Origin: Patiria miniata
Taxonomy: Eukaryota
Direction of reading: 5' to 3'
DNA length: 64,000 nt
NCBI RefSeq assembly: GCF_015706575.1
Contig: NW_024037073.1
Location: 20,022,740 to 20,086,739 of the forward strand
Each line of letters starts with the position of its first letter. Position 1 is the first letter of the stretch. Below are positions 813 to 62,327 of this stretch, piece by piece. The translations under genes were made by a program, and so were the position numbers. Below the pieces are notes generated by a model, which saw nothing but the letters and a program-made list of their open reading frames with translations, was not told the DNA's origin and did no database searches.

Positions 813-820
813 GCACAAGT

Positions 821-1640: not shown

Positions 1641-4129
1641 ATTTTGCACTCAGTAACAAGGATTACACTTTTTTTTGCACGATAACAGCGAATACATCGT
1701 TTAGTGACAAAATACAATGATGCACAAATCATGGAAAGCCATTTGTATCATAAATATATATTGGGTTTTATTACAAACTATGTCAAATTTGTTATTAGTA
1801 CCATGATAAATAGTTTTTGTACTGTCCAAGCAAAAAATGATAGAATGGTAGAAAGTGACAAAATTATGGGAACTCATTTAAATCAGAAAAATGTAATAAC
1901 AATGCTGAACACCATATACTGAAATGTATGCTTTTCAAGGGAATCTTTGGGGTTTTTTTCCAGATGCGACTTGCAGGCCATTTTCAGACAAATCAATTTA
2001 ATCAATGAATATTTTTTTTTGGGGGGGGGGGACCAAAATACGTACAGTATAAACCTTTTGTTACTAGATTTTTACATTTTTCAAAACGTTACATATTTTC
2101 ACATTTTCTCTACTTTCTCAGTAATTTCTAATTCGCTGAATACTTTCCCAAAACAGTAAGGACCATTTTTATACACTTTTAGTTGGCAAGAAGAATGAAG
2201 TTGAAATCAGTTGCATATTGACACTTCATTGAATCATTGACACAGCTCTGCGAATCCACTCAATACAATCTACTCATCTCCAATATAATCACAATTAAAA
2301 CTTCTTAAAGAAGGTATCCTAATGCTCAGAAAACCAAGTGCACACTCGGTAGAATCACCGTCGAATACTTTGTATTTGTTAGGCTTTTAGCATCCATTTT
2401 CTTGCTTCTACTGCAAGTGTTGAAAATTTCATAGGCACACTTTTTATGGACGAAGCTGGAGCTCTACAGAGGTAAATATGATGGGGAAATGTACACATTC
2501 TTTCCGTATGAATGGGAAAGCTTTTTTACAAAACAAAATACAGAAGGTCTTCTTACATTTGAATATCTATCAGTGGTTAGAGCCTTCCCGATGTTTGGCT
2601 TGAAAAAGACTTGAAGGTAATGTGCAACATTTGCAAACATTAAACAGCAAAACTACCATAATATTATGAAATACCTTACTGGACTGTAAGTGAATAATAT
2701 CCCCAAGCATCCTGTGAAATTATGGCACCTGATATGCTGTCATTTTCAAGAAAAGTTGAATTTTGTATCAATTTCCAAATACTGCCCCAAATTCACCAAA
2801 GTTAGTTAGTCCACATTTTGTTTGTAATCAGTTAGACGTCCATGAACGGGTGCCAGCTTGTCTGGTTCCCTGACCTGATAATTCCCTGGCGTCTACAAAT
2901 TGCTCTGTTTCGTCCAAAGCAGGGTCAAGGAACCAGACTACATGAACAGCAGTTTTTTTCAGTCTAACAATATTCACTATAAAAATACTAACCCCCAAAT
3001 CCATCCACTTCTGAAAATTACAGCAAAAGCAAGTGTTGAATATTACCTTTAAACCTAATACATATATTCCACAGCGCTCAATTTACTTTGTACTTGCGTT
3101 CGTCTTGTGTTGTTTTGAAAGTCGTATCAAGTCATGTGAAAACAATTTCCCAAGAAGCAACATTGGTTTCACAAACTGCAACTGCATTTGAAAAAGGAAG
3201 AAAAGGCAGGTTTGGAAACCAGACGTCCATACCTGACCACTATTCTTTATACAATATCTTAGGAGAAATCTGGCTTCAGAATTTTGCACCCTCAAGACAT
3301 GGTTTGCAAGACATGGTTTGCACTCAGCACAAAATTGAACGCGCATGCAAATTTGCGACGTCTCGTCAAGTTTTCTCGCTGCGAATTTGCAAAACTTGAA
3401 CACATTTCAACCTGGACTACTTTTGCTGAGAATGTTTTGTGATGTCAAATTTGCTTTACGTTTGCATTCAGGCAGTATCCTTTTGTGACTTCATGTTTTT
3501 GAGCACACAACAATTAAAGAAAAATAAGCGTAGCCTGTTTGGATAGGAATACAAAATTCCCGCCATTGTAGTACAATTGTGCCCCACTAAATGTTCATCA
3601 ATAATTTCTTGCAATGCTAAGAAAATAAATATACACTACAAGGCTAAGCAGCCCTGCACAATCACGTAGATAAATACGTATATTACATCATTATACAGGT
3701 CATTTTTTGTACACAAATTTGAACCATTTAAATAAACTCCAACTACAGCAAGGCAACTGTAAGTACTTCTTGTTACAAGATTGTCTCGGTGTTTTTGAGC
3801 AACATCACTTTTGAAAACCTTCAAAAAGTATCAAATTTATTTTACATAATTTTGGCAAAAATCCTACTGCTGTTAATAATGTCTTGGTGGTAGAACCCTG
3901 TTATGTATTTCAATTGTATCCCCTTCTTTTTACATTAAAAGCCCCCAACTGTTTGGGGCCACGCAATTTGTATATAGCTACGTAGGGCCAGTTGAGCTCC
4001 CACTGAAATATACTGTAAATGCAAACAAGCTTTTTACTTACAAAAATCAAAACATTTGTGTCCAAATTCTTTGCAATCAAACGTTTTCCCAGAGGCGGTT
4101 CTGAGGTCTGGTAGCCATTTTCTTAACCC

Positions 4130-4440: not shown

Positions 4441-7210
4441 GAGCATTTTGGAGGATATGGGAAGGTCTAAGGTTAAAGGTTTAATTCAAAAAAGTTCCAG
4501 TCCACAGAAAAGTACAGGTTACAGCATTATTCAGAATTGGAAGACAGAAATTATCAATTTTAATTTACATGTGAATAATGAAGAGCAAACATCTATTTTT
4601 GTTTGCACATGAGTCTAAATGTGTACTTACAAATTCAGTTGGCAAGGGCTGAATGAATACAGTATCGTTAATGGCTGATTTTGTAGTGAATATATATTTT
4701 GTTGACCTATGTTGTCTTTTTCTGTGCTTTTTTTTCACATACTAAGCATTCTGGAGTGTACTAACAACCTTGTCTTTGACAGCAAGACGATGCACCCACT
4801 GGTAACAATGCAAGATTACAACTCTACACTGGGGGGGGGGGGGGGGGGGGGCAACACGTGCCCGTGCTTCCCCCCCCCCCCCTCCCCTCCCAAGTGCCCC
4901 CTAGCAACCTAACCCTAGTTACGCCGCTGGGTCATTACACACAAGCTTGTCACCAACAGTAAGATCATAAACACTGTGAGTAGTCAAATTTCATCAACAG
5001 ACAAAACAGGTAAGTGGTAGGTACAGCTTGCTTATCCATCACCACCAGTCAAAACATGGCTGTATCAAGTGACATAAACAGTCACAACCAGTCAATCCTG
5101 CTTTGGAGAACTCAACTGGCAGGAAACAGTCCCTTTCTTGAGTTTGACTGCTGGGATGGCTTTGTTGAATTTGCCAGACAGAGGAGTGTCATAAAAGGTG
5201 ATTTGTAATAAAAAAAAAAATTCAAAGGAGTTAGGTCAAACGAGCTTTGAAATAAGTTTGCACAATTTAAACTCAATTACGATTGCCAACATAAATTACC
5301 CAAAACAGCTCATTTAAAGCACCTACATTTCATTTACAAGCACCAATTAATACAGTCATGACTGGAGAGGCAATCAAGTCCTTCGAAGGCTGAAAAATCC
5401 CAACAAAAAGAGGGAACTGAAGTGAATATTGACTTGCACTTTTGAACAAACAAATCCAAAAAAGTCCTCTAGCTAATTGTGGTTACAGAGGAACCTTACA
5501 AATGGGCCTTATACACGAGTCGGCCATATTGAATTGAAAGTGAGGTAAAAGCTTAATTTTTGGAACTTGCCGAGAGAAATGAAAGCAACTTAATTACTAA
5601 TTAATTCCAGTCTGCTTCAATGAATTATTTAAAATTTGTGATTACACATTCCCTAATGTTTAAAGCCAGATTTTAAAAAAAAATTGCATAAATAGTCTGG
5701 CGCCATCCCATTCAATAGTTAATAATGAATGAAATACATTCAGGGAACTCGACAAAAATGGCCACTCGTGAATAAGGCTCATTGTGTGCCCTCTATCAAC
5801 CAAAGCCTTTTACAGTCTTTATCAACGTACATCCAATACAAGATTAGCAAACAACCAGTTCTTATATCCACATGGAAAAAACACCCCCATTCTGCCATTT
5901 CTTTAGTTACGCCATTTGAATTTCCCACCTAGGATCCAACGGTTCAAAGCTTGGTTGGTTTCTTTCACAATTTAAAAAGAAAAAAAACAATTAAGGTCAC
6001 TGCTCAAATGTGACTGGCTCCACAAAAAAAGGGTATTATGTCGCAAAAAAAGAGAGAAATTGAGTTATATACATGGGTGGAAGGCCCACAATGTAAGCTT
6101 TCATTTGGTATATAATAGAGCTCCATAGCCCCTGCTGTTCTGGAGATATGATGTATTTGCATATTAATTTCTTCCTTGGAGTTCGATTAAAACAACTGAG
6201 AAAACAGGCTTTGAAATAGCTGGCTTTGTTGTAGAACAACAGACCGATGCACCCAAATGGTTGTTTTTTCCACTTTGTTTATTAAAATCAACATTTCTGT
6301 GAATGAAACCTGGAACTGTAGGGATTTAAAGATGTCATTCATGACAAAAAATGAAAATCACATTTTGACAAAATTTTCACCCTCTTACACAATAATGTTT
6401 AGCGAGTTAATACCCTTTTTTGTGGAGCCGGTCACAAATCAAATACCACACTTTTTGTTCTTGTATTCATGCAAATTTGAAAATATTGAGGTACTTTAGC
6501 CTGCTCAGGGACATATTAAAGAAAAACTCTCTCTTCATGGACCAACCACTAAATTACACAAGTCATAAGCAGCCATATTTCCTAAGCAAGTTTTGAGCGG
6601 TCATTAAGAATCAATTTCAGGAAGTATAAATCTACAAAAGTTTGGTAAAATAAATATCTGCACTCTTTGTCAAACCTGGCTGATGGGGGGATTCCTCTAC
6701 CTCTTTAAAGCTCTTCAAAGTACGCCACCCTTGCCTTCGTCGTGCCAGATTTGATCTGTAAAGAAAATCGAACAGAACAGTCAAATATTGAATATTGCAA
6801 ATCTAAACCAGAGCTTATTTTACAATACTACATGTTCTTGTCGTCATACACATTTTTCTCAATACTTCAATTCTAAAAATTTAATACCAAAGTACAGTAC
6901 AAACTTATGTCATCGCAAATACACCAAAAAAACCAACAATTATTAGTTATATCAGGCTTCCAGTGGTAAAAATAATCAGCGCATTGTTTCCTTTCGTAAA
7001 AAGTACCAGGATGACTGCAATATTATGTCAGTATTAAAACGTACCCAGATGAGCACAATATTTTTTTCGATACTGTCTTCATCCGGGCATTTGAACAAAT
7101 TTCACTGTTTCCTGCTCAATCAAGAGTGTAGAAAGCCACAACTTGCATCAGTACAGCAAGGTCCCACAGATGCTTACACCTGATGCTCTGTGTTGCGTCT
7201 GCCAGGGTTA

Positions 7211-7943: not shown

Positions 7944-9037
7944 CTGGGCGAGACAAACAATAGAGGTAGGCGGAGTAAAATAAAGGGTGGAAATTTGGAA
8001 AGACTCTTTAAGAAGTCCAGAGGGAAAACGGGATGACTAAAGGTGGTCTTCCATTGTGTTACTCTGAACAGGATGGAATTTGCATCGGGGAGATGGAAAT
8101 TCAAGATTAGGTTTTGCCCTTCACCGAGAACAAATTCACAAGCTTACTCGGGTGGGACTGGAACCCACAGCCTCCTGCTTACTGGTGCAGACATCTTACC
8201 ACTGAACCACCAAGCTTGCCAGGATCGGCTGGCTGGTTCGAATTGGATAAAGCAGCAGGTACTGCACCCAAACTATTTATAGAATGGAATTTGCGTTGGG
8301 GAGATGTACATTCAATAATGGGTGTTGTACTCTGTTCCTACAGTTTCATACTTTTGTTTCAGAGTCTCGCCCAACATAAATGTGTTTAGATTGACCCAAG
8401 ACGACCAAAATAGAATTAGGTTTTTGACAAGCCAACTTCAATTTTCTACTGACTAGTCTCTGGACTTGTTTCAAAGGATTTCAACAGTCGATCTTCCGCG
8501 TTTGGCGCAGCTCCAGAATGCCAGGCCGCAACAGCTGTTAATACTCAATATCTGCCCAGTTTACTATAGGGGTGTTTTGTAAAACAAAATATTTTTTGGT
8601 GAACATTCAACTGCTACGTTTTGAGCTTGAATGTCAGCTTGAAAGAGATTTTTTATGATAAAGCAACTTCTATTCCATGTTCTTTTGTGCAGGGTAAAAT
8701 ATATTTTCTAGCCCTATTGCTGAGAGTGGATTTAGAAAGGTCATATAGAGGGCTCTCACTGACCCATTTGACTCGGCCTACATCCAGGTACCACAAAGTC
8801 AGCGTCGCCATTGTAGCAGACTAAGACCGATGGGTCGGCATGATTATGACAACCGTGCACGGCACAGGTAGTGACCATTATGCAATTTGATAACGGCTAT
8901 GCCACACGAAAATACACCATACTGTCTAATTTACAATGAATGACGTGGTTGCTGACTAAAGGCTTGCCTCCTGCACTGAGGTAGGGTCTGAAAAAGCAGC
9001 TGGATGGATGTAGAAAACATATCACGTTGATACAAAC

Positions 9038-9186
9038 CTTTCTTTCTCAATTTCTTTGGACAGTTTCTCCACGTCACCATCCGTCATCAGTTCATAGGAG
9101 TTGTTATCGTTGTCCACTCCGTAGTCTCCGTCTGTGAGCTGTAGCTTCTCAAACTCTGAGCTGGTTATGACATGCGCTGATGTTAA
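9038..9186 (-). CDS. NF2: NF2 exon 13 (LTSAHVITSSEFEKLQLTDGDYGVDNDNNSYELMTDGDVEKLSKEIEKE)
   Basis: tctcag acceptor and gtttgt donor; aligns to merlin [31 protein letters not shown]; phase 0 to 2. Confidence 0.75.
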
Positions 9187-10447
9187 CTGAGAGAAAAACA
9201 CACAGAGGGAGAAATGGGTTACAATATTGCTTGAACATTTAATGGCGGAGGACGTGTAAACACGATCTGGCAGTGTACATCAGCAGGGGCGGGCGACGGG
9301 TTAAATCGTCAAGCTTTCTTCAAGTCTCAGGCGGTGGACGTGTTTACACGTCAGTGGTTCCCATTGGTTTTGTACACACTTTGTGTTGAACTTGAACTTG
9401 GCCATTACAGGCCTGGCATTGTATCATATCACTCCCTGGCGGGACCTCCGAGTTACGGTGAGGAGTATCATACAAATATTGTACAAATGACTCTCAAGAT
9501 TTAGTATTTGTGGTGTTTGGCCGATATATTTAATCTTTGTGAAAATTTATGTTTTTCGGCCAAAAAAAATCCTGTCGTGAAGTAGCTACAGGTTATTATG
9601 GAAGTAAAACAAACTGTGCCACTGGTTTACTCATTGCATTGTGTGTTGATAACTGTCAAACACCTGCCAATTTTGTGAGCATTTTGTGCAATGAACACAA
9701 ATTGCACAATGTATCTCTACAATCTAAGTTCTACTAAGAGCAAGTCATTTCACATTTTTAAGGTTATATGTGGGCAATTCCAGCATTATGAAAGGAAGTG
9801 TAATGTCCATGACAGAGCCAATTAACCACGATATCTAATTAATGATTCAGAGAAATGATCTAAAACTCCTAGTCTGTGGTCTCCTGGACCATTAATAGAC
9901 GAAGGATGTAGAAGATTTGAAGAAAAATACATGTTCAGGTTTATTCACTGGGCTCTTAACAGCTCTATCACGGACATTACATTAACCCTAACCCTCCAGG
10001 GTATTTTGGCTAGACACCCTGCCAAATGCAGCAACATGCAACACTTGTCTAAGTGACAAGCCTGCCCAGTGCAGCAAGATCCATCAGGTCAAAATGTTTC
10101 AAGGCCAAACTGCCTCAGAGTCTGTGGTCCCCGAACGCAGCAGGATACAACTGTGGCATTGTTCAATGGGATTAGCTCTCATTGTCTCAGAAACGGCCGT
10201 TTACGCACTGGTGTTGGTGGCTGAATGCATCAAAGTGCACCAGACTTTTCCACCTGATGCACTGTGTTGCGTCTGCCAGGGTTAGGGTTGACGCTTAAAC
10301 ATTTTGGCAAAACCCTTCTGTGTGTCATTCACAAGCAAGTTTAATAATACTACGCAACATTTTGACTGCTAAGCTGTTTACATGTAGCATAGCAAATTTC
10401 TTATGCTTTCAGCTAAGCAGCTTCAAAATATCAGCCCAAGTACTCAC

Positions 10448-15139: not shown

Positions 15140-16165
15140 TTGGACTTGTGACTGGACTAGTGACTGGACTAGTGACTGGACTTGTGACTGGACTTGTGAC
15201 TGGACTTGTGAAAGGATTGTGACTGGACTTGTGACTGGACTAGTGACTGGACTAGTGACTGGACTTGTGACTGGACTTGTGACTGGACTTGTGACTGGAC
15301 TTGTGACTGGACTTGTGACTGGACTTGTGACTGGACTTGTGAAAGGATTGTGACTGGACTAGTGACTGGACTTGTGACTGGACTTGTGATTAGACTTGTG
15401 ACTGGACTTGTGACTGGACTAGTGACTGGACTAGTGACTGGACTTGTGACTGGACTTGTGAAAGGATTGTGACTGGACTTGTGATTAGACTTGTGACTGG
15501 ACTTGTGACTGGACTTGTGACTGGACTTGTGACTGGACTTGTGACTGGACTTGTGATTAGACTTGTGACTGGACTTGTGACTGGACTTGTGACTGGACTA
15601 GTGACTGGACTTGTGACTGGACTTGTGAAAGGATTGTGACTGGACTTGTGATTAGACTTGTGACTGGACTTGTGACTGGACTTGTGACTGGACTAGTGAC
15701 TGGACTTGTGACTGGACTTGTGACTGGACTTGTGACTGGACTTGTGACTGGACTTGTGACTGGACTTGTGATTAGACTTGTGACTGGACTTGTGACTGGA
15801 CTAGTGACTGGACTAGTGACTGGACTTGTGACTGGACTTGTGACTGGACTTGTGAAAGGATTGTGACTGGACTTGTGACTGGACTAGTGACTGGACTTGT
15901 GACTGGACTTGCGACTGGACTTGTGACTGGACTTGTGACTGGACTAGTGACTGGACTTGTGACTGGACTTGTGACTGGACTAGTGACTGGACTTGTGACT
16001 GGACTTGTGACTGGACTAGTGACTGGACTTGTGACTGGACTTGTGACTGGACTTGTGACTGGACTTGTGATGGACTTGTGACTGGACTTGTGACTGGACT
16101 TGTGACTGGACCTATGATGGACTTGTGGCTGGACTTGAGAACTAACTTGTGAGGGACTTGATTAC
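15140..16165. repeat. 12-bp satellite (gtgactggact[t/a]) of about 85 copies with a higher-order periodicity marked by gtgaaaggatt/gtgattagactt variants every 120-130 bp
   Basis: Direct reading. The six-frame ORFs made of VTGL or QVQS repeats are translation artefacts of this array, which lies in NF2 intron 6. Confidence 0.9.
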
Positions 16166-24254: not shown

Positions 24255-24605
24255 AGTCTGCAGAGTTGTAATCGCAAGTCAATCACAAATCAATCGCAAG
24301 TCAATCACAAATCAATCGCAAGTCAATCGCAAGTCGATCACAAGTCAATCACAAGTCAATCACAAGTCAATCACAAGTCAATCGCAAGTCAATCACAAGT
24401 CAATCACAAGTCAATCGCAAGTAAGGTCAGAAGTAACAGTGGATGAACAATAACAAAGGAATGCCTTTGTCAAAGTTCATTTGAATAGCTTGTGAGTTGA
24501 CTTGGGACTGGAGGACTTGTGATTGATTTGTAATGACTTGTGATGATTTGTAACGACTTGTGATGACTTGTGATGACTTGTGATGACTTGTGACTGCCTC
24601 GATTA
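24255..24605. repeat. 11-bp microsatellite (caatcacaagt / caatcgcaagt, about 15 copies) followed roughly 60 bp later by the same array in reverse-complement orientation (gacttgtgatg..), giving a long inverted-repeat structure
   Basis: Direct reading; a related fragment (gacttgtgatggact, cattcctttgttattgttcatccactgttac) recurs in inverted form at 46930-47060. Confidence 0.75.
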
Positions 24606-34019: not shown

Positions 34020-34345
34020 GGCTATATGGCAAAAATGTGTGTCTGATTTTGGAGGATGCGCTGTCAAGATCTTATTAGGCCGGATCTTGTGTTATTTATG
34101 CTCAGTGGTGCATAACTTTAAGCCTAGATTATACTTGAAATCCTCCGCACTGCTCCAGGATGTCACTGGCTGTGCCTCAACATATTGCAAGTGATTGCTG
34201 GAGGATTTTGCAAGATCGAGGCAGTGGTCGTCCTCCAAGGACCACACTCAAAAAATAACGGATGAAGTTGGAAGATTGAGACTGCATGCAAGTTTTACAT
34301 GGAGGCAATTGGAGGATTGTGCAGGATTGAGGCTGCATCCTAGCA
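34020..34345. repeat. Copy of the dispersed ggattttgcaggattgagg repeat family, in MVP intron 3
   Basis: Homologous to 60995-61200, 20215-20425 and 4130-4440. The break in homology of the MVP partial duplicate falls inside this element. Confidence 0.75.
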
Positions 34346-34420
34346 AAAAATGCCTGGGGAATTAGGGTTAAGTGATGGGTGACTTTCATACAAAAGGGCA
34401 GAATGCCGTAGATGATGTAC

Positions 34421-34774
34421 CTTGTCTGTCAGCACGTAGGCATTCACCACGCCCACCACCTCCTCGTAGGCCCCCGGCAGGTAAGCGCCAACCTTTTTGA
34501 CCAGCCACTCTTCCCCGGTCACTCTGGCATCCCCCTGTCGGTCCAGTGTCTCCTTCCTTGCCCGCAGCTTGATGGCCTGGTTGGCCTTGATGATGGTCGC
34601 CCGGACCGTCTCGTCCACGACGACTTCCTTGCGGGGGATGTAGGTGCCCGGACCTTCAAAGAGCCACTCGTCGCCGGCCACGCGCTTGGTCTTGGCCACG
34701 GCGTCGTCGAAGTCTAGGATAGCGCGGAGTCGGAGGGCCGAGTTGGCTGGGACTACCTTGAGTGCAGTCACAGG
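34421..34774 (-). CDS. MVP: MVP exon 3 ([118 protein letters not shown])
   Basis: Six-frame ORF 34340..34978(-); tgtttcag acceptor and gtacat donor; aligns to human ..[85 protein letters not shown].. Confidence 0.9.
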
Positions 34775-35480
34775 CTGAAACACAATGGGGAAAAATCTAT
34801 GATACAACAACTGAGTAAACCAGTTGGGAGTCTTATCCACTTCAGGATAAATACATATGGTAATCACATACAAGTCAACAGCCCATTCGATTACTGCCCC
34901 CGCACTTACTCGTGCAAGTGCCACTGCGTTCAAATTAATCCTCACGTGACTTCTCACGCTTACGCGAGCCTGGCCCAAGTAACCGACCCGCTGAGCCCGT
35001 TACTCGGTTAAATGTCCCACGTGTAAGTCTAACGCTGCGGCGGGGAGAATTCAAAAGTGTTTCAGGTTCACTTGACTTCACACTTGTACAAGACGACGGG
35101 ATGAAAGTCAAGTTTTAAAATTTAAACATAGAGCAAGGATATACATGGGATTTCTTGTTCACTTTGGAAGAGCAGTACAGTGGTGGCCACCACGGCTCGC
35201 TTTCGACGGCTCGAATCCACTATGCAAAGAGGATTTAATCGCCGCAAGACCTCTTGACTCGGTTCGGTTGCTCTGGCTCGACCTGGAGTAACCCGCGATG
35301 ATTCGTTTATTGCTACAGATTGCACATGTGCATCTATACCCAACACGAAATTAAGGGTAAGCTTGAGGGAAGTAATCAAATGCGCTGTCTGTGTCTGTAC
35401 AGCCCTACTGCTTTAAGACCAATAAATAAAAGTAACCAACAAACGTCGAGAGAAACAAATAACAAAACACAGCAAATTAC

Positions 35481-37430: not shown

Positions 37431-40384
37431 TTTATAGTGTGTAACTTAGATCCCAGCAGTAAAGTCATAAATCAGGATTCTGTAACAACTTGCGCAGAGG
37501 AAACTACCCCTTTTTAGTTTTAGTATTAACTTCCTGATAAACCCACACCATTTCCTTCATCTGTGGCTGAGTCAACTCAATCAGTTTTCCAAAAAATGTT
37601 TAAAGGTGAAAAGTGACATGTCAATAATGCAAACTTGTACATGTACGCAAATTACACATGTTCTTCCACTTTCACTGCTTTGTGTCTGTGATATTAGAGT
37701 TTACACTACTTTGTACATGTAACATGGAAGAGTGAAACCTAGGGATTAATAGATTTGTAATTGTATGCAGTAGACATCGCTATACCTAACACCGCTATAA
37801 CGAACATTCTGCTAAACTGAACATCGTCCGATCCTTGGCCCCTGATTTTTGTCTACAAATCGTACCAAACAGACAAGTGGCTATTATTTTCCCGGAGAAA
37901 GCCACCCATTGCTGTAGGTAGTAAGCTCAAAAACTGTGTAATTACATAATTCAATAGTCGGCACGGCTACAAAGTCGTCTTTCAGTATTAACTACCACTA
38001 CCAGGCATGCAGGGTGAAGTTCTGAAGGGCACTATTTATTGAAAAGTGAGTACCAGAGCACCGGCAGCTTAAAATCGCTATACCGAACAATCGCTATTAC
38101 AAACAATTTCTGTGGATCCCACGATGTTCATTAGCGGCGTTTCACTGTACATGTATTTCAACAATAATCCTATTCCAAATACCACCACTATTCCGTACTG
38201 GCAGTAGACATTTAACTGGTTTTTGTTTGTCATTCAATTTTTGCGTGCACTTGAGACCTATGAAAGCTGACTGACAAACTTGCATCAACGGCTGTTGCCT
38301 GCAAATATCTTTAGCTTCGCTTTATAGCTCTACTCCTCTAGTTCTTGAAGAGCTAGAATTCATTCCTTTTTCCAGTATTCAAGCAGTAGGCCTATTTGCG
38401 ATAAGGCTTATTATGTGCCGCAGACCACATACCGCCTAGCTTAGTCTGAGTAACTAGGACTCGACGAATCGCCTTTTTTAACATTTGGAGACTATCGCCC
38501 GACCATCTTCAAATGATAAAAAAGGCTATTCGTTGAGTCCAAGTTACTCAGGCGATCGTGAAGTATAGGGCCCCTGTTTTGTTTTGATCAAATTAGAGTC
38601 AAAAATGTATTTTATTGCTCAAAATTCACCTTTACAATCAAAAGCAGACTTTTCTCAATTCTAATGACACCCGTTTTGCAATTTTGAACAGATTCTTGGG
38701 GTAGAAATCATGATTTTCCAGCGCGGTTTGTGCCTTGCGATTCAGCGCACCGTGCGTGCTCACGGTACATTGCGCGGTGATTGCCATCTTTACTTTCGGG
38801 TCGCGTGTTGTCACCGCACTGTCATCGTCATTTTACCCCCAAATTTTCCTCAAAAAATCAAAACCATGTCCTCTTTCTAAGACATAGGCCTATCTGTTTT
38901 TGAGAAAGTCGCTTACTACTAGTTTGGTGTTGGTAGACCTGTCCAATAACTTTATTTGGAATTTGCTCCCTTATATAGGAACCGGGCCCTACACTACACT
39001 ATCGCCGTTACTTCCTCCATGCTCGGACCTACTTCTGAAATCAGAAGGCTTCTCTCCCTGATTTCAGAAGTAACTCGGACCATGGCGGAATAAAAACACA
39101 GCTACAGTAAAAGTATCCCCCTGTATGCACGCACACATGCACCTCCAACAGCTGAAGTGCACAAAATCCTGCAGGTCAATCCAGAAAAACAAGCCCTTAA
39201 AACATCCCCAAAAGGTATGTAATGCAACGCAACCAGCTTGGAAATCACGAGAAACATTTATATCTTGAAACTGTCCAGCCATGTACCGTTATTATTGCCT
39301 ATCTAACTTACTAATGTACAACAGAACGGGAAATAACCAGAGTTTCACTTACCCACTTCCGTGAAATATGCCGAACCGATGCAGAAACACCGTGTATTTT
39401 ATGCAGGGGCGTGTTGCAAGGTACTTGTGCAATGGTGGCTACGCACGGACCAATCAGCGTTCAGCACATTAGCTAGACGCCTACCTAGTTACTATTACTA
39501 GCGATTACATCATAATTTTTGCTCCCGGCTTCGGTAAAAAAAAAAAAATCAATATGACTGTACATTGTACCGTACCTGCGGACGTCATCAAATAGAGTGA
39601 AAAAATAGAAGCTCAAACAAAGCAAACTAAAGACTGCTGACCCTTGCAGAAGACGTGACAATAGTTTCGTTTTACACATTCAATATTGACAGAAGTTACT
39701 TTCCGTACCAACGGTAGTTTATACGGGGGAAAAATAAGATAAATATATTGCGGAAACAGCCTTATAATAATAGTATAAGTAGTAAATTATAGGCTAATGC
39801 GGGGAAATTACTACTTAAACAAAAATCGATAGGCCTAAGTGACTGCCCAGCAAGATTTTACAAATGATTTCATTATTTACCTAACACATTTGATCGTCAA
39901 AATTACCGAGAAACATTTTGTATTGAATCACTGACCGTTATTATCCCAGGGATTCAAAGTAGGCCTACAAGTGCAGGCATCGAACAGTACTAGAAATTGT
40001 AATCTCATCTACATGTGGAAATGGTAAATTATAGAAAAACTCAATTCTAGAAAAATCTGAAGATGCTATTTAAGATGTTGATATATTGTGAAAGATAGCC
40101 CAAAAAATGCTGATGTAAGCAAAGTGCCTAGTGAGTCACACTGCTTAACATCGTGCTGTGCAGCCATCATTTCATAGAGTGTCATCATGATCACCCTTCC
40201 TCCATGGTGTCATCAGCACTTTACGATCAACCTATTTATTGGGACGGTCTGATATATGAATCAACATCTAGCATTGTTGTGCAATTATTGTTCACAACTT
40301 AACTTTCTCTTCAAGACTTATCCGCATTCCTTACATTTTGTGACCTGTTAATAGTGATGAGCACAGCGAATTTTTTTTTGGGGG

Positions 40385-40870
40385 GGGGGTTGAAGAATGC
40401 ATATTTTACAGAAACAAAAATTGGGTAATAAACAATATGTCAGCTTTCCCAAATCATGCAGAAAATAAAAAATCTAAAAACAAAACCTACCTAGACACGG
40501 ATGGGGCAAATAGTAATATCACCACAGAACCCGGATGCTATCAAGGGCGGATCCAGAACACAATTTTTTTTGGGGGGGGCCCAAAAAATTTTTGGTCCCC
40601 CAAAAAAGTGGGTCAAAAAAATATTACGGCGTGGGGATCGGGGCCCGCTTAAGGGCCCCGAAAAAAATTTGGATTCTAGATGCTCTGTGGTGCGATCTGA
40701 GGCAATTTCTGACCACTTTAACCAATTTTTTTTTTGAGGAAAAGATGGTGGTGTACTCATTGCCTGCCTTTATTGCGATGTCACATAAAAAAAAAAAAAA
40801 ATTGGTTTCGTTTTTTTGGGGGGGGGGGGCATGGCCCCCTTTGCCCCCCCCCCCCCCCGGATCCGCCCTT
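40385..40870. repeat. Homopolymer-rich foldback-like block: G(10-13) and C(14-16) runs with A/T runs, bounded by the inverted motif caagggcggatcc ... ggatccgcccttg
   Basis: 40535-40547 caagggcggatcc and 40856-40868 ggatccgcccttg are inverted; the interior holds ggggggggcccaaaaaatttttggtcccccaaaaaa and gggggggggggcatggccccctttgcccccccccccccccc. Confidence 0.5.
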
Positions 40871-41799
40871 GGATGCTATTCGTGAACCTTTGATCGAAAA
40901 TAAATTGTCTGAAAATAACATATCTAATTGACATGACAAGGTGAGCTATCTTCATATGATTTTCTAAAAGTTAATTTATTAAAACAAACAGATCAGATAT
41001 ATTTATGATGAAACAAAGGGGCTGGATCAGGAGCCGGGGTCGCCGTAAAAAGATTTCAGTACACGCTCCTTAAAGATAGTTTTCCGTGGTCTTTAAAAAA
41101 AAAAATTCTCCTAAAGAATTTCAATTTGTATGTTCTGTTTTTACGGGGAGGACCTACTTTTTAAAAGGGGCTTATATTTTGCACCCGATTGATATTGAAC
41201 CCGCCCTGCGAGAGCCGTATTGTTGTCACAGGCCGCAAATTAAGTAGATTTTGTAGTTCGATAGAACGAACGTCGGTGGAATTGTTTTCGTTCGATGTCT
41301 GATTCAAAAGTGAATAACTTTAATATTGCTATATAGGAAAACTGAAAAAATGTTTCGGGTTCAAACTTGGTATAACACGGGAAATATGAGATAAGTCAGA
41401 ATAGTCAGAATCAGACTTCACACCCCCTAAAAGAAAAACAGAAAATGGCAACATTGTTTTATTAGGCCTATATATGAGCAATCATTTTCTCCATCACAAT
41501 AGACCGATGCCGTCATATATTATTCCCATTCAAAGAAGGTGTATGTCTAGCTGGGAGGGGGGGGGGGGCAATGCTGCTGGAACCAGGAGCGCAGCATACC
41601 GGGGTTCAACACGGATGGACGGAAATTAGACGCTCACTGGGTAGTTCAGTTCTGTGATTTATTACGCACTACGATCATTTTAACGAGAACTAAAGGCCCC
41701 CCCCCCCCGCTCGAGGTATATGCCCTATGCCCACACCCCATCCCAGTGGCCAAGTGACCCACCGGTTTTAGCATTTTTGGTCATCCCCCTCTCGCCGAC

Positions 41800-43345
41800 A
41801 CGGATGTACGCCACTGCCCTTGGGTGACACTGGGACGACTTTAAGGCAGGTTTTATCCGTGATGACAAAAACATTTCTTTGTGGTGACAACAACATTGGT
41901 TTGTCCTAATATTTTTATAAGCTTATTTAACCTATCCTGAACATTAATTAAAGGAAATTGCAAACCAGTCCGGTAGGTAATGATTGAGTTATTGTTCAAG
42001 CAACGCGTGTGTATTTTCTGTACACTGAGACGGCCTTAAGACAGGTTTTCTCCGTGATTACACAATTTTGTTTGTGACTGCAACATTGGTTTGCCTTAAT
42101 ACTTTATATGCTTATTTAACCTGCACTTAACAATAATTAACGGAAATCCAAAACAGTACAATAATTATTTAATGAGTTATTGTTCAAGCAACGCGTGGGT
42201 TGTTTCTGCGCGTTCAATAGTCGGGAGTATTTTCTGTACACTGGGACGTCTTTAAGGAAATTAAGGCAGGTTTTATCCGTGATGACAAAAAAAGTTCTTT
42301 GTAGTGACTGCACCATTTGTCTGTCCTAATATTGTATAGGCTAATTTTACCTATCCTTAACATTAATTAAAGGAAATTTTAAACCAGTCCGGTAGGTATT
42401 GACTGAGTTGTTGTTCAAGCAACGCGTGGGTTGTTTCTGCGTGTTCAATAGTCGGGAGTATTTCCTGTACACTGGGACGTCTTTAAGGCAGGTTTTGTCC
42501 GTGATTACACAATTATTGTTTTGGGTGACTGCAACATTGATTTGTCTTAATCCATTATAGGCTTATTTGAACTTTACTTAACAATAATTTACGGAAATTT
42601 CAAAACAGTACGATAACTATTTAATGAGTTATTGTTCAAGCAACGCGTGGGCTGTTTCTGCGTGTTCAATAGTCGGGAGTATTTTCTGTACACTGGGACG
42701 ACTTTAAGGCAGGTTTTCTACGTGATTACACAATTATTTCTTTTGGTGACTGCAACTTTAATTTGTCTTAATACCTTATAGGCTAATTTTACCTATCCTC
42801 AACATTAATTAAAGGAAATTTCAAACCAGTCTGGTAGGTATTGATTGAGTTATTGTTCAAGCAACGCGTGGGTTGTTACTGCGTGTTCAATAGTCCGGAG
42901 TATTTTCTGTACACTGGGACGTCTTTACGGCAGATTTTCTCCGTGATTACACAATTATTTCTTTTGGCGACCGCAACATTGATTTGTCTTAATACTTTAA
43001 AGGTTGATTTGACTTATACTTACTAATAATTAACGGAAATTCCCAACCAGTACGACAAGTATTTAATGAGTAAATGTTCAAGCAACGCTTGGTTTGTTCC
43101 TGCGTGTTCAATAGTACGGAATATGTTCTGTACACTGGGACGTCTTTAAGGCAGGTTTTATCCGTGATGACAAAAAAAGTGTTTTGGGGTGATTACAACA
43201 TTGTTTTGTCTTAATACTTTATAAACTTATTTAACCTATACTTAACAATAATTATCGGAAATTCCAAAACAGTACGATAAGAATTTAATGAGTTGTTGTT
43301 CAAGCAACGCGTGGGTTGTTTCTGCGTGTTCAATATCTGCGTGTT
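41800..43345 (+). repeat. About 7 tandem copies of a 210-220-bp unit (..ctgggacgtctttaaggcaggttttatccgtgat.acaa..ttaattaaaggaaatt.caaaccagtccggtaggtattgactgagtt.ttgttcaagcaacgcgtgggttgtttctgcgtgttcaatagtcgggagtattttctgtacact) directly 5' of the Penelope-like ORFs
   Basis: Periodic near-identical units; probably the tandem-repeat 5' region of the retroelement. Confidence 0.8.
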
Positions 43346-43698
43346 CATTATCTACTGTTTTCATCCACAGGTTTTTACTTCCCATTTGTTTTCTCTCCTT
43401 TTTTTGACAGGTCACAATAACTTTTGCTCTCTCCTTTCAATGCCCCTGTTTTTCCCTGTTTGCTTTACTTCTCATCTTGTCATGTCTTTTTCCCCCTTTC
43501 TAACATTTTCTTCCCCTGAGTAATAACCCACAGTTTGCTTCCCTCTGCAGTTTCATTGTATAACATTGTGTTTTTCGAGATCATCTGTTTTCCTTTTCAG
43601 TACACATTTCCTTTTGTATAATAACTCCGTTTTTTTTCTCCAGTTTATTTTGTCAAATTCTGATTGCACTACTCCTCTCCACAGTTTTTCTCCCATGT

Positions 43699-46425
43699 TT
43701 GTTCCCTCCTTCGATCATGTCTAACCAAAGATACGTTCGCTTGTTTCAGGAACTTAGGAAACTTAAAGAGAAAGCACTACATTATTCGTATCATCGAGAC
43801 AACTACAGATTCTACACACTAACCAATTTCATTCCCACAGGTTTGCAGGTTAAATTTGACCCAGCCCTTGGGTCTCTGTCTACCCCACTTCGCAAGCGGT
43901 GGAACAGCACACTCCATAGTACATCTCTCAGCCTCATTCGTATTCTAACAGAACATTGTGATGTTTGTCTCAACAGCTTCAACCAAGATATTTCCTGTCT
44001 TCAAGCAGAACTTAGATCCATCTGCTCAGAAGCTCGTTTTGCGCAATTTACCAGTGAGATCGATACTGGTTTATCTAAACTTGAATCTGTTCTTAATTGC
44101 AGGAGAAATGGTAAGATTGGTCGTCTTGTCGCCAAACAGCAACAGTACAGACAGCGACGTTTCAAGCGTAACATACCCCCTGAGGCTGAGCAGTCAGCCC
44201 CTCCATCCACAGTTATTAACCTCTCATCATCTACCCTTTCAGATTCAGAACACAGCCTGCTCTCCAAGGGACTCAACTTCTGCCCCACTCCCCCCACAGC
44301 CTCAATCAGGTTGAGCTCAGTCAGGACCTCACTGACTATACCGCAGAATTCGCCTTCGTGAATTCTTCCTTGACTCACCATGCACCCATGGATCCAGAGC
44401 CATTTTACTGCAAGAGTAAATGGGCACCACCAAAGAACCGTGTTCCTTCCCTTGAAACTTACATACAGGTTGTTAGTTCACAAATTAATTCAAGCGATCA
44501 TTCCACCCATTGGACTCATGACAACCTCCCTAGAGAAGAACGTGAGGCCCTTAAGACTCTACGAGCACGGAAGGACATCATCATCAAACCAGCTGACAAG
44601 GGCTCTGCTGCTGTTGTCATGGGCCGTCAGCAATACATCGATGAAGCCATGAGACAACTCAACAACCAAACTAACTATAAACCCCTTGACACTGATCCAA
44701 CAGGTACCTTTTCAAAGGAGATTCAACAGACACTGGACGAAATGCATGACCGTGACCACCTCTTCAAGAAAGCTCACAAGTTTCTTTCCCCAGTCGATTG
44801 TAGAACAGCTAGATTTTACCTTCTTCCCAAGGTACATAAACCAGATAACCCAGGGAGACCCATCATATCTGGCAATGGTTCCCCCACTGAGAATATCTCT
44901 TTTTGTTGACCGTTTTCTCAAGCCTCTAGTGCCACAGATTCCATCATATATTCATGACACTCCTGATTTCCTCCGTAAAATCTCAGGTATTCAGAACCAG
45001 GTCCCCAACACAGCTATCATCGGTACTTTTGATGTGTCCTCTTTGTACACCAACATTCCCCAAGATGAAGGGATTGCTGCCTGCTCTTCAGCTTTGGCTA
45101 AGAGCAGTCACGACTCACCGCCCATTTCTGATATAGTATCCCTCATGAACCATGTTCTAACTAAAAACAATTTTTCGTTCATGGGTAAGAATTTCCTACA
45201 GGTACATGGCACCGCTATGGGTACACGGATGGCACCATCAATGGCCTGCCTATTCATGAGCCAACTTGAACAGCGCATGTTGGCGTCAGCCCCGTGCCGT
45301 CCCTGGGTCTGGTGGCGCTATATTGATGACATCTTTTTCATCTGGACCAGTGATGGATCTAGCCTCACAGCATTCATTAATCACATCAATTCCTTCCATA
45401 GGACCATCAAATTCACAACCGAATACTCAACCAAGGATACCCACTTTCTGGATGTCAAGGTTCTAAAGACGGACGATGGTTTGATCACAGATCTCTTAGT
45501 TAAACCCCCAGATAAACACCAATATCTCCACTCAACCAGCTGTCATCCCCGACACTGCAAAACCAGCATAGCCTACAGTCAGGCCCTCAGACTCCGTCGA
45601 ATCTGTTCTAAAGATTCCGATTTTATCCACCACTCACAGGAACTTAAGAAACACCTCGTCTCCCGGGGTCATAGCTCCCTGGCAGTCCATCGAGCAATCC
45701 AGAAAGTCAAGGCTCGCTCCAGGGAGTCAGTACTTTCAAAAAGACCTGTTTAACAACAGAGTTCCAAGGAGAAAGTTCCCTTTGTTGTCACTTTCCACCC
45801 CTCACTTCCCCCCATTTGTACAATAACCAGTTCTAACCATCATATTCTTCACACGTCAGATCGACTTCAACGTGCTGTACAAGAAGAACCCATGGTTGCC
45901 TACAGACGGCCACCCAGTCTCAGGGATCTCATTGTCCGGGCAGAAGTCCCCCCCCCCCCCTTAATGATAATGTTAACCCCCCTTTGCCACAGTGAACTTT
46001 CAGGTGTCCCAACACCTCCAAATGCATCCTCGGTAGACAACACATCAGAGAATCGGACTCCTTCACCAGCCATACCGGTGGTACCACCCATAGGACAAGG
46101 GGTCATGTCACCTGCACCACCACCAATCTAATCTATTTAATATCTTGCAAAGTTTTTGGTGTTCAATATATAGGTGAAACGAGAACTACACTCAAGAGAC
46201 GTTTCTACGGCCACAGATCCACAGTCAACACCCATAAGCTGGATACACCCGTAGGACATCATTTCAATCTTCCTAATCACTCAATTTCTGACATGATTTT
46301 ACAGGGCATTGAGGCACTAGGAAACCACAGAGAGATTGTTCGTCCGAGTAGAGAGAAATTTAATATGGATAAGACGTCTCCAGACCATCCAACCCCATGG
46401 TCTGAACATCCAAGAAGGAAATGAC
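43699..46425 (+). mobile_element. Penelope-like retroelement: reverse transcriptase (..YIDDIFFIW.., ..FLDVKV..KPPDKHQYLHSTSCHP..) followed by a GIY-YIG endonuclease (LIYLISCKVFGVQYIGETRTTLKRRFYGH), with ORFs fragmented over 3 frames
   Basis: Six-frame ORFs 43699..44361, 44358..44909, 44686..45753 and 45892..46131, plus an unlisted frame at 46100-46425 carrying the GIY-YIG motif. Frame breaks coincide with homopolymer runs such as C13 at 45948-45960. Confidence 0.8.
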
Positions 46426-47559
46426 TAATAACTTTTTGTCTTTACCTTCTCCTTTTCACCACAGATAAGCCACCCCCCCCCTCCAGTCTGCCTCATTCAC
46501 CAATTAACTACCTTTCTCTCCCTCTCCTATCATTGACTTTGTCCTTTGTGTTCCCCACCTCTTGTGGTCAACCATCCCCTTCCCCCAATCCCCCTCCTTT
46601 CTGTTCAGCCACCTGCTTTCTCTGTGTATTTTCCTCTGCATCATCTATTTCCACTTGACTTATGTTAAATACATTTTTACAAGATGTACATGCTGAAGAT
46701 AATTTAAGGGGGTGGAGACAGGGCAGGCTGGGGGGGGGGGGGGGGTTCCCTCCATTTTAAGACTTCCTAAAACAGGTTACATGGGCTCAACAGCGCTTGC
46801 TGTAAGTGGTATGTTTGTCTGAATCCCTGTATGAATGCAAAAATGTTGTGTCAGGCAGGCAGGGTAACGACTTGAACCACATCCGTGCCTCCATTCCCAT
46901 GGTTCAAATCAGTGATTTAGTCAAGTCCCTGCAAGTCCATCACAAGTCCTCCAGTCCCAATATAACTCACAAGCTATTCAAATGAGCTTTGACAAAGGCA
47001 TTCCTTTGTTATTGTTCATCCACTGTTACTTGTGCCTGGACTTGTGATGGACTCAAATACATGTTCAATGACAACAGAAATTATTTCAAACGTAAATATA
47101 CGAGTATATATAGTCACTACATGCCAAACCTTGCAAAATTTAAGTCAGCCAAGTACATAATTAAGCACATTTGACGTATACAGTGAAATCTGATAACTCA
47201 AAACAAATGTCAAGTCAAACAAAGTATCCATTCCCTTCAGTATAAGTATAACAATGATATACAACCCTGCTTAACTCAAAACTCTGCTGAAGTCAAATTT
47301 TGAACCTGTTCCCTTGAGGTTTGATTTACCAAGATTGATATTCTGGACCCGCCTCTAATACTGAAGTTTAGAGGTGCCTAAACTTAAAGGGAAAAAAAAC
47401 CTCTGCAGTGAAGCCCAATGTAAAAGCAAAAGATTTGGACAATACACTGATGAATAGTTGAAATAACTTTGAGGAAACAAATTTAACAGCACCACAGCCA
47501 CCTTTGAGAAGTGTGCTTATTTGTTCAACGGGGACACCCATGAGTAGACCTCTGATGCA

Positions 47560-48100
47560 TTTATTATTATTATTATTTATTCATGCCAATTCTATTTCAT
47601 CACATACAAGATGGGCATAGGAGAGGCAAAAGCGATAACAATCACTGTGGTCAAAGACCTGCCAATCCTCATCAAGTTATGTACAGAGTAAAAAAATATA
47701 TATAAAAATACTAATATAAAAAGTATTTGAAGCCAAAAGTTAGAACTTAAAAATATTTAAATATAAAAAGAAAAGGAATTACTGGAAATGAATGAAGATA
47801 ATGTCCGCAATTGAATATGAAATTAAATAAGTTACATGAATAAGCAATTAATGATAAAGACACATTAAATAAGGACATAATAAACACAAATTAATAAATG
47901 AATAAGAGAACAGTAGGTAAGTGTACAATCAATGTAATGAAAATCTAAAGGGTGATTGGCAAACCGGAGGCTGAAATAGTACTTAAAATGAGAAGAGACC
48001 TGCTGCTCCTCATCGAGGTATGAGAAAAGTAAATAAATAAATATAAATAAGAATATATAAAAAATAAAAATAATAGAACATATGAACATTTCGGGAAAAA
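47560..48100. repeat. AT-rich low-complexity tract (aataaat/aaatata repeats)
   Basis: Direct reading. Confidence 0.6.
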
Positions 48101-60994: not shown

Positions 60995-61200
60995 AATATC
61001 CAGGATGTCACTGGCTGTGCCTCAACATATTGCCAGTGATTGCTGGAGGATTTTGCAGGATTGAGGCAGTGGTCACCCCTCAAAGGACCACACTCAAGAA
61101 ATACCAAATGGCGTTGGAGGATTAAAGCTGCATGCAAGTTTTACATGGAGGCAATTGGAGGATTGTGCAGGATTGAGGTTGCATCTTAGCAAAAAATGCC
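60995..61200. repeat. Copy of the dispersed ggattttgcaggattgagg repeat, homologous to 34150-34345 in MVP intron 3 of copy 1
   Basis: Direct comparison. Confidence 0.75.
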
Positions 61201-61266
61201 TGGGGAATTAGGGTTAAGTAATGGGTGACTTTCATACAAAAGGGCAGAATTCCGTAGAAGATGTAC

Positions 61267-61620
61267 CTTGTCTGTCAGCACGTAGGCATCCACCACGCCC
61301 ACCACCTCCTCGTAGGCCCCCGGCAGGTAAGCGCCAACCTTCTTGACTAGCCACTCTTCCCCGGTCACTCTGGCATCCCCCTGTCGGTCCAGTGTCTCCT
61401 TCCTTGCCCGCAGCTTGATGGCCTGGTTGGCCTTGATGATGGTCGCTTGGACCGTCTCGTCCACGACGACTTCCTTGCGGGGGATGTAGGTGCCAGGACC
61501 TTCAAAGAGCCACTCGTCGCCGGCCACGCGCTTGGTCTTGGCCACCGCGTCGTCGAAGTCTAGGATAGCGCGGAGTCGGAGGGCCGAGTTGGCTGGGACT
61601 ACCTTGAGTGCAGTCACAGG
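61267..61620 (-). pseudogene. MVP: Partial MVP duplicate, exon 3' ([45 protein letters not shown]); intact ORF with Q and D substitutions relative to copy 1
   Basis: Six-frame ORF 61186..61629(-); identical splice sites to copy-1 exon 3. Confidence 0.7.
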
Positions 61621-62327
61621 CTGAAACACAATAGGCGAAAAATGTATGATACAAGAACTGAATAAATCAGTTTGGTAGTCTTATCCACTTCAGGATAAAT
61701 ACATATGGTAATCACATACAAGTCAACAGCTCATTCGATTACTTTCCCCGCACTTACTTGTGCAAGTGCCAATGCGTTCAATTTAATCCTCAAATGACTT
61801 CTCACGCTTACTCGAGCCTTGCCCAGGTAAGCGACCCGCTGAGCCCATTACTCGGGTAAATATCCCACGTGTAAGTCTAACGCTGCGGCGGGGAGAATTC
61901 AAAAGTGTTTCAGCTTCACTTGACTTCACACTAGTACAAGACGACGGGATGAAAGTCAAGTTTTAAAATTTAAACATAGAGCAAGGATATACATGGGATT
62001 TCTTGTTCACTTTGGAAGAGCAGTTCAGTGGTGGCCACCGTGGCTCGCTTTCGACGGCTCGAATCCACTTTGCAAAAAGGATTTAATCGCCACATGACCT
62101 CTGGACTCGGTTCGGTTGCTCTGCTCGACCTGGAGTAACCCGCGATCATTCATTTATTGCTACAGATTGCACATGTGCATCTATACCCAACACGAAATTA
62201 AGGGTAAGCTTGAGGGAAGTAATCAAATGCGCTGTCTGTGTCTGTACAGCCCTACTGCTTCAAGACCAAAATATAAAAGTAACCAATAAACGTCGAGAGA
62301 AACAAACAACAAAACACCGCAAATTAC

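Follow-up and report, generated by a model that had tools for sequence, protein, structure and literature searches.

The window, the whole stretch of 64 kb of DNA that was analysed, contains one reading frame of a mobile element with pyrimidine-rich flanks on both sides and, directly before it, a tandem array (Table 1).

Table 1. Features of the element and of the adjoining array, with positions in the window
Feature	Position	Strand	Description and basis
Tandem array	41827-43335	.	7 units (195, 216, 231, 221, 221, 221, ~204 bp); TRF, blastn, alignment
Array/element junction	43321-43353	+	15-bp motif TCTGCGTGTTCAATA, 2.2 copies; TRF; alignment to L001 starts here
5' UTR	43336-43716	+	Pyrimidine-rich (74% C+T); local alignment to L001 ~4603-5100, score 242
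Single ORF	43717-46428	+	~890 codons, now a pseudogene; three-frame translation, Pfam, homologues
GLNF	44269-44280	+	GxKF/Y-like; N-terminal domain
Frameshift 1	44292-44297	+	In or adjoining C6 run
Frameshift 2	44334-44340	+	1-nt deletion, lost T (TAT TAC to TATAC); non-homopolymer
Frameshift 3	44378-44386 (~44385)	+	+1 nt; non-homopolymer
DKG	44595-44603	+	N-terminal domain
Frameshift 4	44890-44903	+	2-nt loss (CT of TCTCT) in TCTCTTTTT; ISLFVD to ISF/VD
RVT_1 match	~44950-45414	+	RT core; Pfam
YIDD; YIDDIF	45319-45330; 45319-45336	+
HFLDVKV	45442-45462	+
YLHSTSCHP	45523-45549	+
Thumb/HTH region		+	Between RT core and Cys-rich linker
In-frame TAA	45751-45753	+	Lys in P0010, Pro in P0001
Frameshift 5	45948-45960	+	C13; ~5 extra C where relatives encode Val-Pro-Pro
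In-frame TGA	45993-45995	+	Gly in all relatives examined
Cys-rich linker	45999-46043	+
CX5CxxC in linker	46005-46037	+	Zn-finger-like; third Cys>Gly (CPNTSKCILG; P0010 CSNISKCIVC)
GIY-YIG nuclease	46128-46425	+
GIY…YIG core	46128-46214	+	LIYLISCKVFGVQYIGETRTTLKRRFYGH; second Cys of CCHH>Phe (ISCKVFG; P0010 ISCRVCG)
Frameshift 6	46356-46363	+	4-bp TAAT insertion within SREK-LWI (~46360)
Stop codon TAA	46426-46428	+
3' UTR remnant	46429-46692	+	72% C+T; aligns to L001 7801-8083

Judged by its sequence, the element at 43336-46692, located in the genome of an asteroid, an Asterias-like sea star, is a Penelope-like element (PLE). [quoted passage not shown] In the conceptual translation, Pfam detected RVT_1 (E 2.3e-7; 31.2 bits, cut-off 29.6) followed by GIY-YIG, the latter with an E-value of 3.4e-4, yet with 21.3 bits, just below the cut-off of 22.6; in the intact relative P0001, full-length alignment to which is concordant with this domain order, the domain clears that cut-off with 27.7 bits. 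Asn replaces Lys at the GxKF/Y site, and relatives read likewise. The Cys pair of the CCHH motif between GIY and YIG, together with the CX2-5CxxC linker, was found in 97 of the 109 GIY-YIG-bearing homologues; the CCHH region of P0010 is intact (ISCRVCGVQYIG). Solved structures and NCBIfam gave no informative match.

Protein search revealed 2838 homologues at E<=1e-10, the best of which was an Asterias amurensis protein (90% identity), while an intact 897-aa relative has 67% identity across 100% of the query. Frameshift-aware protein-to-DNA alignment gave 92.2% identity over 600 codons for P0010, annotated as an 'uncharacterized protein' of A. amurensis, and 69.0% over 896 codons for P0001 (897 aa, intact). 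The locus of P0010, L001 (GCA_032118995.1, CP134958.1: 22.53 Mb), has 88% nucleotide identity over window positions 43676-46604 (~2.9 kb) and homologous 5' and 3' UTRs, but retains the 600-aa open frame and, 299 nt past the stop, a hammerhead that is degenerate (U4>C); the 221-bp array is missing. The sequences flanking L001 are unrelated to those in the window, and it is therefore not an orthologous insertion. The marine-metagenome family of P0001 (loci L002-L009) has the same architecture and motif set, with 69% amino-acid identity and a unit of ~3.2 kb; in contrast to the window copy, its ORF is open, a canonical CUGAUGA minimal hammerhead lies at each unit boundary, and copies are arranged head-to-tail and inverted. 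When the N-terminal 315 aa served as query, close hits were few; the best of those that could be used, L012 (86% nucleotide identity), includes only 119 bp on the 5' side of the ORF. Copies from other species and assemblies are the basis for inferring how old the window copy is and where its true termini lie.

The family appears to be Neptune-like, not Penelope/Poseidon, according to the diagnostic Cys-rich linker, which Nematis shares. This placement is based on the CX2-5CxxC linker between RT and the endonuclease, a feature that distinguishes Neptune and Nematis from Penelope/Poseidon (Craig et al. 2021, PMC8557442; Arkhipova et al. 2013, PMC3846280). From the generic comparison with Penelope, Poseidon and Neptune proposed earlier, only the Neptune part would then hold, with the third Cys of the linker lost in the window copy. 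Penelope of Drosophila virilis and Poseidon resemble the element in RT, C-terminal GIY-YIG with CCHH and pseudo-LTRs with hammerhead; however, according to the cited literature, they are without the Cys-rich linker present in this family. The Hydra clade, with DKT, no CCHH and a CxCX5C linker, was rejected, since the family has DKG, CCHH and CX2-5CxxC; Naiad/Chlamys elements, with an N-terminal GIY-YIG and a CxC motif, were rejected because the endonuclease here is C-terminal.

Transcription of active PLEs is driven by a pseudo-LTR promoter, and the single ORF is translated; a nick made in the target DNA by the GIY-YIG nuclease frees a 3'-OH, which RT uses as primer. PLE insertions are 5'-truncated, tandem or inverted, with flanking repeats carrying a minimal hammerhead ribozyme. 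Among the relatives, the minimal hammerhead lies ~250-300 nt outside the ORF, at unit boundaries of tandem and inverted arrays; in L004, hammerheads at 71-111 and 3310-3350 enclose the ORF (360-3053). Rfam hammerhead models found no match in window positions 40000-48000 or in L001-L009 at E<=5-10. Since Rfam models miss minimal PLE hammerheads, a minimal-hammerhead descriptor allowing a U3-A8 core and a covariance model, R1, were made, and R1 scored the hammerheads of L001-L010 at 61-70 bits.

No hammerhead was found with R1 in the 64-kb window, where the best score was 10 bits (E ~4, filters off). The pyrimidine-rich leader of L001 appears to reach ~60-90 bp further upstream (extent read by eye), and thus the window copy may be slightly 5'-truncated. 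The 3' UTR remnant ends ~20 nt short of the position of the L001 hammerhead (8102-8142), and no ribozyme was found after it. The sequence CTGAAGA at 46693, ~10-20 nt before the expected hammerhead, has neither helix II nor a GAAA partner and is scored at nothing by R1; it is treated as chance or an unrecognisable remnant. Downstream of the 3' UTR remnant, a G16 run occupies 46730-46745. Terminal repeats were looked for and not detected: comparison of the 5' with the 3' UTR scored 23, and shuffles averaged 22.7. Two short, CT-rich matches between the 5' and 3' sides, D11 and D13, likewise did not exceed shuffles. Tandem or inverted insertion structure or pseudo-LTRs are present in L002-L010 and absent from the window copy, and neither a target-site duplication nor (TA)n was found at its ends. 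Within the window the element and the array each occur once, a distant relative of the array unit aside. Compared with Neptune-clade PLEs (Arkhipova 2006; Craig et al. 2021, PMC8557442), whose flanking repeats carry minimal hammerheads and whose insertions are tandem or inverted, the window copy differs in eight ORF lesions, two lost Zn-ligand Cys and missing hammerhead, pseudo-LTR and (TA)n. The absence of the hammerhead fits a truncated copy and is no argument against family membership.

The array was reported by TRF at 42011-43335 (period 221, 6.0 copies, 81% matches, score 1704), with a shorter first unit from 41827. The seven or so copies of a 215-bp repeat described earlier correspond to seven units of 195-231 bp, with a mean of ~215 and a modal period of 221 bp. 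Mean column identity of the units is 82% (alignment A1), and, according to the identity matrix, A-type units u1, u3 and u5 alternate with B-type units u2, u4, u6 and u7, forming a dimeric higher-order repeat of ~442 bp.

Taken together, the window segment 43336-46692 (+) and the 221-bp array are very probably a dead, terminally incomplete canonical PLE copy with a C-terminal endonuclease and a separate satellite. The array is most likely a satellite that lies beside the retrotransposon without belonging to it; the 'tandem-repeat 5' region' attributed to the element in the preliminary description finds no support, given copies without the array and dissimilar flanks. It is improbable, though not negligibly so, that the array is integral to the PLE lineage, as a tandem-repeat 5' leader or promoter or as an expanded pseudo-LTR. 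Consistent with such a role, the array directly adjoins the 5' UTR in the same orientation as read, TCTGCGTGTTCAWTA is common to the array and the UTR with a homologous GTTCAATTA at the matching place in L001, and in relatives the hammerhead is found ~250 nt before the ATG, at about the place where the array ends; PLE families lengthened by tandem repeats are also on record (Craig et al. 2021, PMC8557442), and some Chlamys PLEs are reported to contain tandem repeats. However, the array was absent from all copies compared, namely, the closest L001 (88% nucleotide identity) and L012 (86%), L010 and L011, which are more distant, and L002-L009 of the 67% family; among these, L010 and L012 hold little or no sequence upstream of the ORF start. 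Local alignment with the non-coding 5' and 3' flanks of L001, L002, L004 and L010 showed no similarity beyond shuffles, and the array differs from the UTRs in base composition. A second array, distantly related to the unit, is present on the minus strand at 828-1578, and no PLE adjoins it; conserved array motifs, used as exact patterns in two scans of metagenome contigs, matched nothing. A 14/15 match of TCAATAGTCGGGAG in the array to sequence downstream of the L001 hammerhead was rejected, as the local alignment scores for the flanks of L001, L002, L004 and L010 equal the shuffle expectation.

At the junction, the final unit of the array and the first part of the 5' UTR have GTGTTCAWTA in common. 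The ~15 bp shared there would fit microhomology-mediated 5' joining or later local duplication; the share of 15-17 bp nevertheless exceeds typical microhomology and leaves room for a real link between array and element. Slightly less probable than an integral array is its origin as a product of the PLE lineage, a ribozyme-less expansion seeded at the 5' end (TCTGCGTGTTCAWTA), or as a satellite targeted or co-mobilised by the family. If true, either reading would tie PLE activity to the birth of satellites with no hammerhead involved.

The element itself is an ordinary transposon fossil, mutation-riddled rather than near-intact. Frameshift-aware protein-to-DNA alignment revealed six frameshifts and two in-frame stops in the ORF, the last frameshift being just upstream of the region that holds the catalytic Glu and Asn, both conserved. 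Of the sites that do not vary among seven relatives, eight carry private replacements in the window copy, the two Cys among them, and three in P0010. The preliminary description had called the element near-intact, with the frame broken only at homopolymers; the C13 run that it cited is real and contains a frameshift, but only two of the eight lesions fall in homopolymer runs of at least six bases and six lie outside them, two zinc-ligand Cys are mutated, and the hammerhead and terminal repeats are absent. An intact or almost intact element whose frame is broken by sequencing or assembly errors in homopolymers is very unlikely: although two frameshifts sit in the C6 and C13 runs, long G/C homopolymers are numerous enough in the window to make indel errors conceivable, and the protein is 92% identical to its A. 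amurensis relative, the lesions outside homopolymers comprise two nonsense codons, a 4-bp insertion, a 2-bp deletion and two single-base indels, accompanied by Cys>Gly and Cys>Phe at invariant Zn-ligand positions and by loss of hammerhead and pseudo-LTR at both ends. Assembly error could account for some of the indels that fall in short runs. The six frameshifts, two nonsense codons, losses of Zn-ligand Cys and missing ribozyme ends indicate that the copy is unable to encode the protein, and its processing or mobilisation has probably been lost. The copy has lost both ribozyme-bearing ends and is regarded as a fossil. For annotation, the region is to be masked as a degraded Neptune-like PLE and a satellite rather than taken for a candidate active element or gene; the case shows that long ORF pieces and a first-pass call of 'nearly intact' can conceal eight disabling lesions.

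Least probable of all is the reading of the array as a non-LTR retrozyme, a non-autonomous tandem repeat with hammerheads that stems from PLE pseudo-LTRs and is moved by PLEs: the 221-bp unit and the tandem layout beside a PLE match animal retrozymes (bioRxiv 10.64898/2026.07.22.740005) and relatives of the present PLE carry hammerheads, but in the array no type I hammerhead per unit was found on either strand (Rfam, descriptor, R1 with filters off), the CUGANGA core string is absent, and the fold energy of units is that of shuffles (z-scores -0.33 and +0.44).

Beyond annotation the significance of the locus is slight; a by-product that may be useful is that members of the family from echinoderms carry minimal hammerheads, the U3-A8 core variant included. 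In alignment A2 the hammerhead core covaries across three lineages (C3-G8 versus U3-A8), with compensatory changes in helix II.

The motifs quoted in the preliminary description (YIDDIF, FLDV, YLHSTSCHP and GIY-YIG) and the C13 run were all located in the window, of which 40000-47500 was inspected and 43300-46700 translated in three frames; these features are real and far beyond chance. Assignment to Penelope-like elements (PLEs) was likewise borne out by both domains and by full-length homologues. In the conceptual translation, following the frame changes along the ORF, Pfam RVT_1 (reverse transcriptase, RT) was matched above the cut-off at E 2.3e-7, and GIY-YIG (endonuclease, EN) at E 3.4e-4, with 21.3 bits against a cut-off of 22.6 bits; intact relatives exceed both thresholds. 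Among 5.8 billion proteins, 2838 homologues were found at E<=1e-10, the best being P0010, an 'uncharacterized protein' of Asterias amurensis (600 aa, 90-92.2% identity). The intact 897-aa P0001 from marine metagenomes is 67% identical across the full length; the next-ranking homologues belong to sea urchin, brittle star, sea cucumber, amphioxus and bivalve. This ranking points to an echinoderm host, almost certainly an asteriid sea star.

Coordinates of the PLE, its lesions, the tandem array and the hammerheads of related loci (L001, L002, L004, L010)
Feature	Sequence	Position	Strand	Details	Method
Shorter array unit	window	from 41827		precedes TRF-called array	
Tandem array	window	42011-43335		period 221 bp, 6.0 copies, 81% matches, score 1704	TRF
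PLE ORF	window	43717-46425	+	TAA stop 46426-46428	frameshift-aware alignment
Frameshift	window	about 44292	+	in C6 run	
Frameshift	window	about 44339	+	one T lost	
Frameshift	window	about 44385	+		frameshift-aware alignment
Frameshift	window	about 44890-44900	+	CT lost	
YIDDIF	window	45319-45336	+		motif search
HFLDVKV	window	45442-45462	+		motif search
YLHSTSCHP	window	45523-45549	+		motif search
Nonsense TAA	window	45751-45753	+	Lys at aligned site in P0010	
C13 run, frameshift	window	45948-45960	+		
Nonsense TGA	window	45993-45995	+	Gly at aligned site	
LIYLISCKVFGVQYIGETRTTLKRRFYGH	window	46128-46214	+		motif search
Frameshift	window	about 46360	+	4-bp insertion TAAT	
Hammerhead	L001	8102-8142		U3-A8 core variant, U4>C	
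Hammerhead	L002	2473-2513		further sites across L002-L009	
Hammerhead, ORF, next hammerhead	L004	71-111, 360-3053, 3310-3350			descriptor
Hammerhead	L010	10146-10186		U3-A8 core variant (UUGAGAA)	

Alignment of P0010 and P0001 to the DNA by a frameshift-aware dynamic programme revealed six frameshifts and two nonsense substitutions in the ORF. Only the C6 and C13 events fall in homopolymers, contrary to the suggestion that all breaks do. At sites invariant in seven relatives, eight private replacements were found in the window copy versus three in P0010; these include Cys-to-Gly at the third cysteine of the CX5CxxC linker and Cys-to-Phe at the second cysteine of CCHH. With these lesions the copy can no longer be called near-intact. 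Because of the frameshifts, stops and private replacements it is a pseudogene, and would remain one were the indels in homopolymers mere assembly artefacts. Decay by substitution is moderate, judging by the 92.2% amino-acid identity to P0010, and inactivation need not be ancient, dating requiring a same-genome consensus.

In active PLEs, retrotransposition starts from a nick made by the GIY-YIG nuclease and proceeds by target-primed reverse transcription, yielding truncated, tandem or inverted copies, the repeats of which carry a hammerhead. By this established knowledge, active relatives of the window copy would use nicking and target-primed reverse transcription, while the window copy itself is predicted to be incapable of these steps, a fossil with no predicted function.

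The Zn-finger-like motif CX2-5CxxC between RT and EN is conserved in Neptune and Nematis and absent from Penelope/Poseidon (Craig et al. 2021, PMC8557442; Arkhipova et al. 2013, PMC3846280). Unlike Penelope/Poseidon, the family of the window copy carries this motif; together with a Cys pair between GIY and YIG, it was found in 97 of the 109 GIY-YIG-bearing homologues. Naiad (DKA) and Hydra (DKT) are disfavoured by the presence of DKG, and Naiad and Chlamys by the C-terminal EN. Because of the linker, DKG and the C-terminal EN, the family appears Neptune-like, as placed by the linker motif, which Nematis shares.

Canonical PLEs contain minimal hammerhead ribozymes in flanking repeats (PMC4209133, PMC8557442). 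Rfam models called no hammerhead, either for the window or among its relatives, but missed those of the relatives, which were found with a minimal-hammerhead descriptor (GGCCTCTGATGAAGGTCCTGCTAGGATCGAAACGTTAGGCC in the P0001 family). The core in echinoderm-type relatives is CUGAUGA or the U3-A8 variant (UUGAGAA), and helix II is compensatory among three lineages (GGUCC/GGAUC, GACUC/GGGUC and GAACC/GGUUC; alignment A2). The hammerhead spacing in L004 gives a 3239-bp unit, and P0001-family copies are both head-to-tail and inverted. At L010, the copy encoding the PLE protein P0013 is directly followed by a second ORF for an RT and then by a hammerhead (8290-10186), a partial-tandem arrangement typical of PLEs. 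The hammerhead of L001, the P0010 locus, carries U4>C and is probably inactive. The covariance model R1, built from the relatives' hammerheads, scored 61-70 bits on the relatives and at most 10 bits (E about 4) across the 64-kb window with filters off. Sequences similar to the histone 3'-UTR stem-loop (RF00032) were also present in L001 at 4969-5013, 8377-8421 (-) and 8749-8793 (Rfam, 31-34 bits, at or slightly below the gathering score), suggesting a hairpin-bearing dispersed repeat; one lies within the PLE 5' UTR of L001, where it is inserted by comparison with the window.

DNA homology to L001 is 88% across 43676-46604, and gapped alignments reach 46692 (L001 8083) in the 3' UTR and about 43316-43340 in the pyrimidine-rich 5' UTR. 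Because 3' UTR homology ends about 20 nt short of the expected hammerhead, the two UTRs of the window copy show no similarity and no second copy of the PLE or the array was found in the window, the ribozyme-bearing pseudo-LTR ends were lost from this copy or never present in it. Neither a target-site duplication nor a (TA)n target was seen at it. Runs of G12, C12 and G16 (41557-41568, 41697-41708 and 46730-46745) bracket the block of array and PLE. At both 41550 and 46727 a G-run is preceded by GCTGGG; the similarity goes no further and is probably coincidental.

The array comprises seven units of 195-231 bp, consistent with the described seven or so copies of 215 bp, which is the mean, the mode being 221 bp. 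Two subtypes alternate, with variable-core identities of 89-94% (u1/u3/u5) and 86-88% (u2/u4/u7) within and 70-79% between them, thus forming a dimeric higher-order repeat, as satellites typically do. No hammerhead core was found in the array on either strand (Rfam, descriptor, R1), its folding is no more stable than that of shuffled sequences (z -0.33 and +0.44), and scanning of metagenome contigs for its motifs returned nothing. The array is very probably a neighbouring satellite. That it is linked to the PLE as its 5' region, as initially proposed, is favoured by TCTGCGTGTTCAWTA, common to the last unit and the PLE 5' UTR and duplicated at 43321-43353, and by GTTCAATTA at the homologous 5' UTR place of L001, but is unlikely: the array is missing from all loci examined, L001-L012 (L010 and L012 have little upstream sequence), its similarity to the relatives' 5' and 3' flanks is not significant, and its base composition differs from that of the pyrimidine-rich UTRs. 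Moreover, a distant relative of the array at 828-1578 (-), with a 160-bp period and related to positions 105-204 of the 221-bp unit (unit profile, E 1.6e-4 to 1.4e-3 for three units), has no PLE beside it. The junction between satellite and 5' UTR could derive from microhomology-mediated joining or local duplication. The 160-bp-period array adjoins a 42-bp minisatellite (160-800, 15 copies, 94% matches).

Other repeats of the window include, at 40542-40871, an element of about 330 bp that resembles a MITE. Its 13-bp terminal inverted repeats, CAAGGGCGGATCC / GGATCCGCCCTTG, are perfect, long A/T/G/C homopolymers fill its interior, and a direct duplication of 8-9 bp, (G)GATGCTAT, flanks it (40533-40541 and 40871-40879). 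The ORF pieces 34340-34978 (-) and 61186-61629 (-) share about 140 nearly identical aa, presumably resembling major vault protein repeats, which suggests an exon or segment duplicated about 27 kb apart. Units of 10-12 bp, related to GACTTGTGA(T/C), form arrays at 15141-16160 (85 copies), 24270-24593 and 46922-47053; the last spans 132 bp shortly after the PLE and, inverted, matches 24409-24540 at 88% identity.
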